A DNA stretch of 64,000 bases from Calditrichia bacterium (GTDB lineage Bacteria; Calditrichota; Calditrichia; RBG-13-44-9; J075): positions 87,006 to 151,005 of the forward strand of contig JBOEGD010000002.1 of the NCBI GenBank assembly GCA_050633245.1. Direction: 5' to 3'. Position numbers and translations under genes: made by a program. Below, piece after piece: positions 19,072 through 22,746 of the stretch. The notes under the pieces are model-generated. The model had not been told where the DNA came from. It did no database searches and worked only from the letters and a program-made list of their open reading frames with translations. Positions within the stretch are counted from its first letter, which is position 1. Each line of letters begins with the position of its first letter.

Positions 19072-19875
19072 TTATCGGTTTTGACGCTTGGCGAACTGGT
19101 TTCTGGCTTTACGACTGTTCAATCCCAACTTATTGAGTTGTGAACGAACACCAAACCAGCCAACTTTTGTGAATCCAAAATCCGCAGAATTCAAACGCTT
19201 GTTAATCTTGAACGCGCCAATATCCGGGTTACGCGCTACAATATGGCGAATTTTGTCTTCTGTTGACATGTTTACGAGATCACGCGGTCCAAGGTTCCGA
19301 CGAACTTGCGGAATTGACTCTTCCGAGCGATCTTCGAATACGTCTTCTGCAACCGGCTCGACTGGCTGAGAGGAAGCGACTGGCTCTCCGGCTATCGGCT
19401 CCATTGGCTGCCCGGGTGTCATCTCGCCACCAAAAGGCGTTTGCGGTTTTGGTGCCGGGGGAGGAGTCGGTGCCTTTGGTTCAGCTGCAGGCTGTCCGGT
19501 AACAACCTCTACAAACTGCGACTCCTCAAATTTACCAATGGCTTCATCAAGTGAATCATATACATCAAGAATATGATGAAACTCGAGAAGCTCAAAGATT
19601 TCATAGACATCTGGAATCATGCGAACCAACTTAAGATCGCCATTATTTTCTCGAATTGCCTTAATTTCGCTAATAAAGATACCCCATCCGGCACTGCTGA
19701 TGTAATCTACATTGCCAAGATCGATAATAATTTGATAGCGTCCCTGCTTTAGCAGACCATTGAGGGAACGCTCAACCTCGGAAGATGTTGTCGTATCAAT
19801 ATAGCCACCGACTTTTATTACAGATAGCTGACTGCCGCTTCCGGCAGGCTCAGTCGAGACCTGAATGCCTTCCAT
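19072..19875 (-). CDS. STAS anti-anti-sigma factor (RsbV/SpoIIAA type) with Pro-rich linker and C-terminal HTH-like domain
   Basis: G.ID..T, IIIDL..VDYISSAG (phospho-acceptor Ser), V..IFEL; linker PAAEPKAPTPPPAPKP; basic C-terminal domain homologous to the tail of the 19965-22613 protein. Confidence 0.88.
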   Translation of the reverse strand: MEGIQVSTEPAGSGSQLSVIKVGGYIDTTTSSEVERSLNGLLKQGRYQIIIDLGNVDYISSAGWGIFISEIKAIRENNGDLKLVRMIPDVYEIFELLEFHHILDVYDSLDEAIGKFEESQFVEVVTGQPAAEPKAPTPPPAPKPQTPFGGEMTPGQPMEPIAGEPVASSQPVEPVAEDVFEDRSEESIPQVRRNLGPRDLVNMSTEDKIRHIVARNPDIGAFKINKRLNSADFGFTKVGWFGVRSQLNKLGLNSRKARNQFAKRQNR

Positions 19876-19964: not shown

Positions 19965-22613
19965 TTATTCGTCGTCACTCTCGTCATCGAGCAGGCCACC
20001 GTTCCGCTTTGGTGGCGAAGGCAGCATTTTTGATTTCAGTTGAGCTGGATCCGGCTCAGAGATTTCAACCTCTTCAAGTTTCTTACCACGGGCCGAGATC
20101 ATTTTCTCACGAGCGCGAGATTCCGGGGGCAGCTCCGGCATAAATGGCGATCCGGATCCGGCATTATCTTCACTTCGGAATCCGACCAGCACTTCACCAT
20201 CAAGCGTAAGCAGCGGTGTTCCCGGTGGTTTAAGCCTTTGCTTGCCACCACGATCGACAAAAGCAGCACGTCTTTCCTTGGTATTTAGTTTGGCGCGCTT
20301 GAGCTCTTCATAAATCAGATTTGAGGAAATCTCGGTAAAACCGTATTTCTCCGTATTCAATGCATCGCTGATTTTCTTTGGTCCAAACTCGGGAAATTCA
20401 CGAATAATATCATACATCTTTGTCTTAACTTCAATACTAAGATGTCTTAAACCAAGATTTGTATAGCCATGAAGCATTTCGCGAAGCAGATCGTAGCCGC
20501 CTTCTTGCAAAATGCGGCGATAACGGTAAAAAGTTGTCGGTGAAACACCGGCTTCTTTACAGACGTCTGCAACAGTCTGACTATCTTCTTTATTTTTAAT
20601 TTCTTCGAATAGCTTCTGAAACGTATTCACTTTAACATCGACAGCTGCCATGTTTTCTTTAATCGCCACCAGGGTGATATCGTCATTTTGATCAAAGCCC
20701 TGCGTAAAGTTCATAATATCCGCTTTAATGGCTTTCACAAACTCAACCACGTCCAGACTACCATAGCGTCTGATGGCTTTTAGAAAACGCTCTTCCCCAT
20801 AAAGATCGCGCTGCTGGTTCATCGCCTCAGTAATACCGTCAGTATAGAGTACCAGCACATCATCCGGATGCAGACGAATGCGATCGGCCTGAATGCGCTC
20901 GCCAAACAGCTTAATGTCTGGCAGCGTAATACCAACCGGAAAACCTGATGGATTCAGATAGAATGTTTCTTTACTCTTTCCCCGAAATAGAATCATCGGG
21001 TTGTGTCCGGCACTGGAGAAAGACACAATGCGTTCGCGTGAGTCTAGAATAACGTAGAACATTGTTACAAACATGCCGCGACGAATATCGTCTGTGACAA
21101 AGCGATTTACTTTGGCCAGAATATCTGCAGGATTGCTATTTCCACGCGTCTCGAGTCTCAGTGAGGTACGAATCATCGTCATAACCAACGATCCCGGAAT
21201 TCCCTTACCAGACACGTCAGCCACGCATACGCCGATCGACTGATCATCCACTTCAACAAAATCAAATAGGTCTCCGCCTACTTCCTTGGCAGATTGATAA
21301 TAAGATGCTATATCGTAACCAACAACTTCTGGAAAGTCGTCTGGCAGCAGCATCTGCTGAATTTCCTGTGCGACCTGCAATTCTTTATGCATGCGCTGCT
21401 GCTCGATTACGCTGGTTTGCGCTTCGCGAAACTTGTTGGTCATTTCATTAAATGCTACGGCTATCTCTCCTACCTCATCACCGGCATCGATATCAATTTC
21501 ATCCTGATCGGCCTGACCGGTTCCAACTTGGCGCACCCACTCTGCCAGCTTGTGAAACGGTTGGGTAATTTGAATTACCAGAAATGCCACAATCGCCATT
21601 ATCAGAGAAAACAGGATAAGCACAAATAGCAGCGAACGATTGCGTTCGGATGCCACTTGATTTGAAATTTTATTTTCGTTCACCGAAACGACTGCATAGC
21701 CTAGCGGTTCGTCATCAACATTTTGTAGCTTTACCGGAGCAATAAAGTAGAGTAGTGTTGAGTCGCCGGCTGCTTCATAAATCGTAACGTCTTCACGGGT
21801 TTCCAGTACGTTCAGCATACCGGTATCAAATTTTTGGCCCAGCTGTTCAACCGCAAATGGGGATACGGCAAGAATTTCCAGCTCGCTGTTGGTAATTACC
21901 GCCTGCTCGAGCAGCGTGTTGCTGCTCGATCTGACGATCTGAGCATTTTCATTTAGCAACGGGCTGTTTTCTTCCAGCAGTAGATCCCAATTACTGGCTG
22001 CAAAATTACTGGCTGTCGCCGTTGCTTCAGCATACACATCGCTGCGCACCGAGCTGGACGTACGATATTGAAGAAAAATAAAAGATGCAAGTGCCAGCAA
22101 AGCTCCCAGAGCTCCGGATAACAAGAAGAATTTTCTGCGGAGTGACAAGCCCTCGAACCAGGCCATAATTGGCTGTTCATGAACCGGAGCTTCGCGGTGC
22201 TTAGTAAGACGTAACTCGTTGCCGGCACGTGTAAGGTTGTATTGGATATCGTCCATGAGCTTACGCATCATCAGGATACCAAGACCACCCTTTTTACCAT
22301 AATCTACATATTTCTGCAGGTCGGGGTTCTGTGCTTTACGCGGGTCGAAGTGTTTACCCTGGTCGATAATAACCATAGTAATACTTTGACGACGGATAAT
22401 TACGCGAATGGTAATCATTCCGTCCTTTACATCCATGTAGCCATGACGAATAACGTTCGTGCAGGCTTCATCTACAACCAACTTAAAAGAATTGATGACT
22501 TTATCGGCAAGTCGGTATTTCTTACCGTTTTGCTCAATAAAGTCCCGTATCTCTTTGAGATAGGCCATAGAGGCTGGGACAATTAGCTCTTCTTTTGAGA
22601 CGTTTTTAAACAT
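19965..22613 (-). CDS. Multidomain membrane signalling protein: RsbW-type HATPase kinase - TM - periplasmic sensor - TM - HAMP - SpoIIE/PP2C phosphatase - tandem HTH
   Basis: HATPase EACTNVIRHG / IDQGKHF / GGLGI; two hydrophobic TMs; HAMP DEVGEIAVAFNEM; PP2C EVGGDLFD, ADVSGKG, SAGHNP, YTDGITEA, DDITLV; HTH TVADVCKEAGVSPTTFYRYRR. Confidence 0.9.
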   Translation of the reverse strand: MFKNVSKEELIVPASMAYLKEIRDFIEQNGKKYRLADKVINSFKLVVDEACTNVIRHGYMDVKDGMITIRVIIRRQSITMVIIDQGKHFDPRKAQNPDLQKYVDYGKKGGLGILMMRKLMDDIQYNLTRAGNELRLTKHREAPVHEQPIMAWFEGLSLRRKFFLLSGALGALLALASFIFLQYRTSSSVRSDVYAEATATASNFAASNWDLLLEENSPLLNENAQIVRSSSNTLLEQAVITNSELEILAVSPFAVEQLGQKFDTGMLNVLETREDVTIYEAAGDSTLLYFIAPVKLQNVDDEPLGYAVVSVNENKISNQVASERNRSLLFVLILFSLIMAIVAFLVIQITQPFHKLAEWVRQVGTGQADQDEIDIDAGDEVGEIAVAFNEMTNKFREAQTSVIEQQRMHKELQVAQEIQQMLLPDDFPEVVGYDIASYYQSAKEVGGDLFDFVEVDDQSIGVCVADVSGKGIPGSLVMTMIRTSLRLETRGNSNPADILAKVNRFVTDDIRRGMFVTMFYVILDSRERIVSFSSAGHNPMILFRGKSKETFYLNPSGFPVGITLPDIKLFGERIQADRIRLHPDDVLVLYTDGITEAMNQQRDLYGEERFLKAIRRYGSLDVVEFVKAIKADIMNFTQGFDQNDDITLVAIKENMAAVDVKVNTFQKLFEEIKNKEDSQTVADVCKEAGVSPTTFYRYRRILQEGGYDLLREMLHGYTNLGLRHLSIEVKTKMYDIIREFPEFGPKKISDALNTEKYGFTEISSNLIYEELKRAKLNTKERRAAFVDRGGKQRLKPPGTPLLTLDGEVLVGFRSEDNAGSGSPFMPELPPESRAREKMISARGKKLEEVEISEPDPAQLKSKMLPSPPKRNGGLLDDESDDE

Positions 22614-22746
22614 AGAATCCGGGTATAATGCTCTTTAATTAAAACCGTCTAAAGTCCGGTAAAATAAAAGATAAAGTGGATATGGAACACCGGTTGCATT
22701 CAACATAAAGAGTATACCCCGGTGATCCAAATTTTTTATTGACGAA

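Follow-up and report, generated by a model that had tools for sequence, protein, structure and literature searches.

We analyzed a stretch of 64,000 nucleotides from the genome of a Calditrichia bacterium (GenBank assembly GCA_050633245.1, contig JBOEGD010000002.1, positions 87,006 to 151,005), which is referred to as the window below. On its minus strand, an intact open reading frame of 882 amino acids (aa) encodes a membrane sensor that combines an RsbW-like kinase and an opposing PP2C phosphatase with a C-terminal helix-turn-helix (HTH) tail. Our results support the view that this tail is fixed and domesticated, and related to the two-part DNA-binding region at the N-terminus of IS481-type transposases. 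One of its two HTH modules also occurs on the STAS protein encoded by the next gene and on a second STAS protein from an exopolysaccharide (EPS) operon of the same genome, and we tentatively propose that these STAS proteins are the DNA-binding outputs of the system. The sensor gene and its parts are located as follows (window coordinates).

19965..22613, minus strand: whole sensor; RsbW-like kinase, membrane helix, outer domain, membrane helix, HAMP, PP2C, two-part HTH, conserved motif and acidic tail
22200..22580, minus strand: HATPase_c_2 domain (RsbW/SpoIIAB-type serine kinase), aa 12-138; Pfam 3.4e-29
22065..22133, minus strand: membrane helix 1, aa 161-183; Kyte-Doolittle 19-residue windows >1.6, within a long helix (158-207) of the AlphaFold2 model
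21645..22064, minus strand: outer (periplasmic) sensor domain, aa 184-323; flanked by the two membrane segments and without a Pfam family
21552..21644, minus strand: membrane helix 2, aa 324-354; from hydropathy, its end overlaps the start of HAMP
21432..21581, minus strand: HAMP domain, aa 345-394; Pfam 8.5e-9
20658..21245, minus strand: PP2C/SpoIIE serine phosphatase domain, aa 457-652; Pfam 1.4e-48
20469..20591, minus strand: HTH1, aa 675-715, homeodomain-like, of the HTH_28/23/29 type; sub-threshold Pfam HTH matches, alignment with the first of the two HTHs in IS481-like transposases
20244..20456, minus strand: HTH2, aa 720-790, of the HTH_32/HTH_21 type; predicted local distance difference test (pLDDT) values of 87-94 in the tail model, homologous to the tail of the STAS protein
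20166..20243, minus strand: conserved motif, aa 791-816, with the core PPGTPLLTLDG; predicted to be disordered
19968..20165, minus strand: variable, mostly acidic C-terminal tract, aa 817-882

Catalytic domains and membrane topology

A first-pass annotation of this gene, made by a model from the nucleotide sequence alone, had described an intact RsbW-type ATPase at the N-terminus, two transmembrane segments around a periplasmic domain of ~145 aa, a HAMP domain, and a PP2C domain with its metal-binding aspartates. We agree with this description in all of its parts. The quoted kinase motifs are all present, and the residues E49, N53, D84, G86, and G109-G112 are invariant or nearly so among 70 homologues, with N53, D84, G86, and G109-G112 being fully invariant. 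The same holds for the metal-binding aspartates of the phosphatase (D448, D451, D466, D592, D644, and D645), which are likewise invariant or nearly so. Because hydropathy predicts two membrane segments, the kinase, HAMP, PP2C, and the tail should be located on one side of the membrane and the domain of ~140 aa on the other. This outer domain is variable and consists, according to the AlphaFold2 model, of helices followed by beta strands. Neither Pfam nor hydropathy gave any indication of a REC domain in the sensor, the middle part of which is made up of the membrane segments, the outer domain, and HAMP.

The kinase domain also matched the NCBIfam models of RsbW and SpoIIAB (E 1.5e-19 and 1.3e-12, respectively), in both cases with scores under the cut-offs of the families. 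In Foldseek searches, it matched RsbW from the RsbV/RsbW complex (6m37), while the PP2C domain matched Rv1364c, SiaA, RssB, and SpoIIE at E values of 1e-10 to 1e-12. The top match for the model of the full sensor was Rv1364c (E 2.5e-12).

Origin and conservation of the C-terminal tail

Pfam found five HTH families at aa 675-712 (HTH_Tnp_1, HTH_29, HTH_7, HTH_23, and HTH_28), all of them below threshold. The NCBIfam profile of the IS481 transposases (NF033577) matched aa 675-781 with its positions 10-112 of 284 at E 2e-8, with a score of 34 bits that is far under the family cut-off of 224 bits. A profile of the tail is collinear with the IS481-like transposases of the same genome, and its comparison with eight such transposases of the phylum by hhalign extended over 149 collinear columns (98.9%, E 3.2e-17). 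Behind the tail, no rve/DDE core was detected by Pfam, and the match to the IS481 profile ends at position 112-113. The first-pass annotation had proposed this relationship for positions 20256-20580, which indeed correspond to aa ~678-786, and had noted the lack of a DDE domain; both statements were confirmed. The sensor tail therefore resembles the IS481 family (NF033577) in its collinear two-part HTH, but differs from these transposases by being single-copy, syntenic, not mobile, and without the DDE core.

An AlphaFold2 model of aa 655-825, calculated from 37 sequences, consists of two three-helix HTH units that are separated by a linker of low confidence (mean pLDDT 76). The anticipated HTH fold was thus recovered in the model, but the structural matches that had been expected together with it, although consistent with it, were weak (Foldseek E >= 0.03). 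Among the sensor homologues, the mean net charge is +5.4 for HTH2 and +0.5 for HTH1.

Of 86 Calditrichota genomes, 83 have the tail, among them 52 of the 53 high-quality ones, and so do 54 of 55 genera. There is a single copy per genome, and the weaker second match located 1.5-2 kb further downstream is due to the STAS protein and its tail. When aa 655-882 were used as the query, 199 proteins were retrieved at E<=0.001. Among the 120 matches listed, almost all share the architecture of the sensor, and wherever a source is named among these 120, it is Calditrichota, Calditrichia, or Caldithrix. IS481-type transposases are found in 9/86 genomes of the phylum at E<=1e-40, and in 3/86 if the family cut-off is applied.

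We then compared the different regions of the sensor. In the following list, identity is the mean pairwise value over 30 orthologous loci, and the ratio of nonsynonymous to synonymous substitution rates (dN/dS, or omega) was determined according to Nei-Gojobori and pooled over three separate close pairs.

Outer domain: identity 0.32, omega 0.37
HAMP: identity 0.77, omega 0.12
PP2C: identity 0.83, omega 0.09
HTH1: identity 0.65, omega 0.15
HTH2: identity 0.75, omega 0.16
Motif aa 791-816: identity 0.87, omega 0.02
C-terminal tract: identity 0.23, omega 0.47

The omega values of 0.15-0.16 for both HTH units indicate purifying selection on the tail, which is neither absent nor degraded in the orthologues, as it should have been if the first-pass annotation had mistaken debris for a domain. 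Collinear homology, a near-universal single copy within the phylum, purifying selection, and the absence of the DDE core all agree with the domestication of a transposase domain that had been postulated there. We propose, as the most likely explanation, that the tail was fixed before the phylum radiated.

The first-pass annotation missed the motif that follows HTH2 (aa 791-816), which is the best-conserved stretch among the sensor regions compared. It is part of a segment (residues 794-882) with pLDDT values <50 in the full-length model, and is therefore predicted to be disordered. A six-frame search of the genome with three patterns identified the whole motif just in the sensor. It is also absent from 14/14 PP2C- or STAS-bearing relatives of other architecture, in which the match stops before the motif. 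With a permissive setting of hhalign, its PPGT...LD aligns, with low column confidence, to the RPGT..ID found where the catalytic core of the transposases begins, the two aspartates being offset by one column. An ungapped count from the end of HTH2 places both aspartates at +26 if one IS481-like transposase of this genome is used for comparison. This is suggestive, and a remnant of the lost DDE core, from its junction and first strand, may survive in the motif. The tract behind it (after aa ~816) has a net charge of -4 in this sensor, with a mean of -10.6 and a length of 48-442 aa among 68 homologues.

HTH modules on two STAS proteins

The next gene downstream of the sensor encodes a STAS protein that, judged from its sequence, is a candidate for the cognate single-STAS substrate. 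Its parts are listed below.

19072..19875, minus strand: STAS partner gene, 267 aa; Pfam STAS 3.7e-18; STAS domain aa 1-115, disordered P/Q/E-rich linker aa 116-195, basic HTH2-type tail aa 196-267
19075..19290, minus strand: HTH2-type tail of the STAS partner, aa 196-267; BLASTP to sensor aa 719-788 with 31% identity, E 1e-8

Profile-profile comparisons by hhalign linked this tail to HTH2 of the sensor (97.3% and 98.5%, E 2e-15). The tail is much nearer to the sensor HTH2 than to the transposases, for which the same approach gave 17.5% and E 1e-3. Pfam HTH_21 was weakly matched by 9 of 41 STAS homologues. In all 41, the serine pair S60-S61 within the sequence DYISSAGWG is invariant. For the STAS domain, the linker, and the tail of the partner, identities of 0.85, 0.21, and 0.58 were obtained, with omega values of 0.095, 0.43, and 0.16, respectively. 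Hence, the disordered linker, with a length of 45-94 aa in the homologues, is always present but unconstrained, while the tail is constrained. The mean net charge is +8.3 for the STAS tail and -8.0 for the STAS domain. In 29 of 30 loci, the STAS gene lies directly next to the sensor gene, and the 30th locus is shorter and probably reaches the end of its contig. The same adjacency was observed in 14/14 genomes from 8 families.

The third copy of the HTH2 module in this genome belongs to a second STAS-linker-HTH protein.

G000:C1:137207-138160 (L033:9208-10164), G000 being the genome analyzed here: second STAS-linker-HTH2 protein, 318 aa, in a Wzx/Wzy-type exopolysaccharide operon

The gene order of this operon is Bac_transf, polysaccharide deacetylase/DUF3473, STAS, Poly_export, Wzz/GNVR/AAA_31, FemAB-like, Wzy_C, and GT4. 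Of 12 genomes sampled from different families, 11 have the second STAS-HTH gene between Bac_transf and Poly_export/Wzz, and all 12 have kept the tail on this paralogue. Neither the second STAS-HTH paralogue nor the HTH2 of the STAS neighbor had been recognized by the first-pass annotation. In an HTH2 tree (64 rows, 76 columns), the STAS tails form one clade (99/96), and the sensor together with the fused forms another (98/93). The transposases are found on long branches, and the tree does not resolve their placement or the order of events.

In one genome (G082, L066:7527-10265), an EPS-type STAS-HTH2 forms the end of a stop-free frame of 913 aa that starts with a GH3 glycoside hydrolase. The two parts are either fused or belong to separate genes that share a frame, and EPS genes were not detected in the vicinity.

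Relatives with other architectures

At E<=0.001, the tail was matched by 245 cluster representatives out of 1.84 billion. Among the 150 matches listed, 57 differed from the sensor architecture by length and match position, and these were scanned with Pfam. None of the 57 contained a DDE domain at E<=1e-6. Large membrane glycosyltransferases of family GT2, most of which have two N-terminal copies of the module, make up 23 of them (P0297, P0302, P0359, P0365, and others), and the two with a source name are both from Patescibacteria. Another 13 carry PP2C, in several cases followed by the HTH and then by up to three STAS domains. The one-chain proteins composed of PP2C, the two-part HTH, and STAS (P0305, P0313, P0319, and P0322), one of which is named as Latescibacterota, are without the PPGTPLLTLDG motif. 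The full two-part HTH is kept in these proteins where STAS is fused in cis, and therefore it does something beyond the recruitment of STAS. Three of the 57 are STAS proteins without PP2C, and HTH-type or unrelated matches alone were obtained for the remaining 18. Two STAS proteins of ~385 aa (P0325 and P0331) have two HTH2-type copies in their C-terminal half.

Gene neighborhood

The sensor gene belongs to a conserved cluster of envelope genes.

12106-38040 of the window: conserved envelope-gene cluster; 4441-aa giant protein with Big_1 Ig-like repeats, PorV/PorQ-like outer-membrane protein with fused TPR repeats, sensor, STAS, DUF4159, DUF4175, and patatin-POTRA-Omp85

This order, from the giant Ig-repeat protein to patatin-Omp85, is conserved: the sensor gene and the four genes behind it are retained in 14/14 genomes (8 families), and the two upstream genes in 13/14. 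No sigma factor was found by Pfam among the window genes that recur in this seven-gene neighborhood in the 14 genomes, the survey being confined to genes shared with the window.

Comparison with known systems

The association of a kinase with an opposing phosphatase in one protein is already known in kind from SypE and Rv1364c. The latter, a soluble protein of Mycobacterium tuberculosis, has PAS and STAS domains in the same chain, and we know of no HTH in it. Its structure (PDB 3ke6), the one retrieved by Foldseek, resembles the sensor in combining an RsbU-type phosphatase and an RsbW-type kinase in a single polypeptide, but the order is reversed, with the phosphatase before the kinase.

SypE from Vibrio fischeri is described as beginning with a serine kinase of ~140 aa that is histidine protein kinase (HPK)-like and for which N52 is essential, followed by a REC domain and, at the C-terminus, a PP2C domain (PMC3610818). 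It acts on SypA, a STAS protein of a polysaccharide locus, the target of which is described as unknown in the cited accounts (PMC3610818; PMC8256260). The likeness, which we judge from the described architecture, is based on a kinase with a conserved asparagine (N52 in SypE, N53 in the sensor) and a C-terminal PP2C in one chain. It further includes that both activities are directed at a STAS protein, as we would assume for the sensor, that a STAS gene is located in a polysaccharide locus, and that no sigma factor is known for the system. The two enzymes differ in their middle part, since SypE is cytoplasmic with a central REC domain, where the sensor has its membrane segments, outer domain, and HAMP. 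Moreover, HTH modules are not part of the cited descriptions of SypE and SypA, whereas transposase-derived ones are present here on the enzyme and on two STAS proteins.

A use of HTH domains is reported for CapK and CapS, where CapK (HTH-STAS-kinase) phosphorylates CapS (STAS-winged HTH), a repressor that is released from the DNA upon phosphorylation (Chambers et al., EMBO J 2026, PMC13373217). As far as this system is described there, it shares with ours an HTH-bearing kinase of the anti-sigma type, a STAS substrate with a C-terminal HTH, and the absence of a sigma factor. The STAS-HTH protein CapS is the DNA-binding output, and we propose, by analogy, that the STAS-HTH proteins of the sensor may have the same role. 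According to the same source, CapK differs from the sensor in being soluble, activated by single-stranded DNA, and without PP2C, and CapS has an ArsR/MarR-like winged HTH directly on the STAS domain, where our proteins have an IS481-type HTH behind a linker of 45-94 aa. The context also differs, which is anti-phage immunity for CapK/CapS, and the cell surface and EPS here.

Finally, in the HenR/All4160 system of Anabaena, as outlined in a preprint (10.64898/2026.04.08.717354), a PP2C-type phosphatase and kinases control a STAS protein governing a polysaccharide layer, again with no sigma factor, but there the enzymes are separate proteins. The new features of the sensor system are the transmembrane receptor as its input, and the presence of transposase-derived HTH modules on the enzyme and both substrates. 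We regard it as SypE-type partner switching with a CapK/CapS-like use of HTH domains, occurring almost throughout one phylum and also in relatives. A description of this sensor family was not found in full-text literature searches, the coverage of which does not include subscription journals.

Proposed mechanism

We read the system, by analogy, as a partner switch that would resemble SypE/SypA and work without a sigma factor. Domain composition, catalytic motifs, transposase homology, conservation, synteny, and the module common to the sensor and the STAS proteins were observed directly, and what follows on the substrates of the two enzymes, on binding to DNA, on the function of the motif, and on the regulated genes is our inference. 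A signal would be perceived by the variable outer domain and transmitted through HAMP, shifting the balance between kinase and PP2C. Both activities would act on S60/S61 of two STAS-linker-HTH proteins, the adjacent one and that of the EPS operon. In our view, the tails of the sensor (HTH1 and HTH2) and of the STAS proteins (HTH2 alone) both go back to the DNA-binding N-terminus of an IS481-like transposase. These modules would still bind DNA, and the phosphorylation state of the STAS-HTH proteins would set their DNA occupancy, as in CapS, while the two-part HTH of the sensor would bring the enzyme at the membrane to this same DNA. For the invariant disordered motif, we suggest that it could act as a peptide on which a partner, possibly the STAS protein, docks. 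Likely targets would be cell-surface functions, namely the EPS operon and the surface/envelope cluster around the sensor.

For the central part of this proposal, i.e., the STAS-HTH proteins as DNA-binding outputs and the sensor tail co-localizing the enzyme on the DNA, we estimate a probability of about 0.45. The STAS-HTH proteins are likelier outputs than the sensor, because the neighboring STAS protein and its second paralogue carry the same HTH2. They are also favored because of the precedent of CapK/CapS, as reported, in which the repressor CapS leaves the DNA when phosphorylated. We also counted the basic STAS tails and the basic HTH2 in favor of a DNA-binding output, although the charges of these regions (+8.3 and +5.4), of the STAS domain (-8.0), and of the C-terminal tract (-10.6) would fit DNA binding or docking alike. 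In a further-reaching version, which we consider rather unlikely at present, the receptor and its two STAS substrates, all equipped with exapted DNA-binding pieces of transposases, would assemble on DNA at the membrane. In this assembly the motif, as a possible vestige of the first DDE strand, would mediate docking, and a signal from the envelope would directly control the genes for exopolysaccharide and giant surface proteins throughout the phylum.

Several results weigh against DNA-binding STAS outputs. For the tail, Foldseek found no match in the PDB at E<=0.001, the best ones being TnsB, MuA, and the Pax6 paired domain at E 0.03. Alignments of the tail by VIA-align to the DNA-binding regions of MuA, TnsB, Tc3, and IstA and to Myb/SANT-like single domains were weak, with Z values of 4.8-5.7, a size that can come from common helical arrangements. 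HTH1 is near-neutral in charge. The nearest relatives outside the signaling family are the GT2 glycosyltransferases, for which a role in DNA binding is not obvious. The intergenic region between the sensor and STAS genes, aligned for 27 of the 29 extracted loci, revealed only a GGAGG ribosome-binding site as conserved sequence, but no operator. A search of the PDB sequences with the profile of the 41 STAS homologues gave nine hits, all of which are classical anti-sigma antagonists, and no CapS chain at E<=0.01. In addition, the STAS proteins have one small HTH behind the long disordered linker, unlike CapS. Finally, SypA is described as acting below the level of transcription (PMC3610818).

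Alternative explanations

In one alternative, the HTH2 module and the motif would no longer bind DNA and would instead keep both STAS substrates attached to the membrane enzyme. The flexible linker would then swing the STAS domain between kinase and phosphatase, and the output would be a contact made by the unphosphorylated STAS protein, e.g., with an EPS enzyme, as has been proposed for SypA and All4160. Such a role in protein docking is favored by the module that the enzyme and both substrates have in common, and it agrees with a linker that is always there but free to vary. Further arguments are that the best-conserved region of the sensor is predicted to be disordered, and that this motif is kept only where STAS is a separate protein, being missing from the relatives with other architectures including those with STAS fused in cis. 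Docking is reportedly treated as the basis of specificity in PPM phosphatases (PMC11418112). The reported position of SypA below transcription points in the same direction, and so does the Anabaena partner switch, which is stated to act directly on an EPS biosynthetic enzyme (preprint 10.64898/2026.04.08.717354). Our main argument against it comes from the cis-fused proteins: with the full two-part HTH kept in them, tethering cannot be its sole role. The strongly basic STAS tails are, furthermore, at least as well suited for binding nucleic acids. We regard docking alone as unlikely, albeit as the best of the alternatives.

The first-pass annotation had inferred that the sensor itself is a membrane-tethered transcription factor. 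In this version, it would bind promoters with its own HTH tail and be tuned by its kinase and phosphatase, and the STAS tails would be accessory. With a conserved two-part HTH of DNA-binding ancestry on the cytoplasmic side of the membrane, this idea is plausible but unproven. Nothing ties the enzymatic activities to the sensor's own tail, however, and the adjacent gene provides a canonical STAS substrate of extremely high conservation (identity 0.85). CapK/CapS is the one precedent that has been tested, and its repressor is, as reported, the STAS-HTH protein and not the kinase. Hence, the output had probably been placed in the wrong protein, and we consider a sensor acting as transcription factor to be improbable.

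Even less probable is a classical anti-sigma switch, in which the RsbW-like domain holds a sigma factor at the membrane until it is freed by the unphosphorylated STAS protein, with a minor role for the HTHs. The kinase does resemble RsbW and SpoIIAB in the NCBIfam and Foldseek comparisons mentioned above, but Pfam found no sigma factor among the window genes that recur in the neighborhood, and tails conserved as strongly as HAMP would be left unexplained. That the tail is recent insertion sequence (IS) debris or an assembly artefact at the 3' end of the phosphatase gene, as the occurrence of IS481-like transposases in this genome might suggest, is refuted by an in-frame, syntenic single copy under purifying selection in 83/86 genomes, compared to transposases in just nine, and can practically be dismissed.

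The output route of partner-switching systems without a sigma factor is an open question, as illustrated by SypA in the accounts cited above. DNA-binding STAS-HTH proteins would offer a testable route from a periplasmic signal to the control of surface polysaccharides, given a conserved module of DNA-binding ancestry on the enzyme and on both substrates, one of which is encoded in the EPS operon. The sensor family is also a clear and old case of the DNA-binding region of a transposase domesticated into signaling proteins, and the same kind of module is found on membrane glycosyltransferases.

Additional observations

The IS481-like transposase genes of this genome are located on contigs C51, C52, C18, and C17. 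Contigs C51 and C52, both of which carry such a gene, are ~1.5 kb each, a size typical of unassembled repeats. At the sensor locus, a GC-rich inverted repeat (CACCGG...CCGGTG; window 22680-22725, minus strand) immediately follows the PorV-like gene and precedes the start of the sensor gene. Because this repeat is terminator-like, the sensor may have its own promoter.

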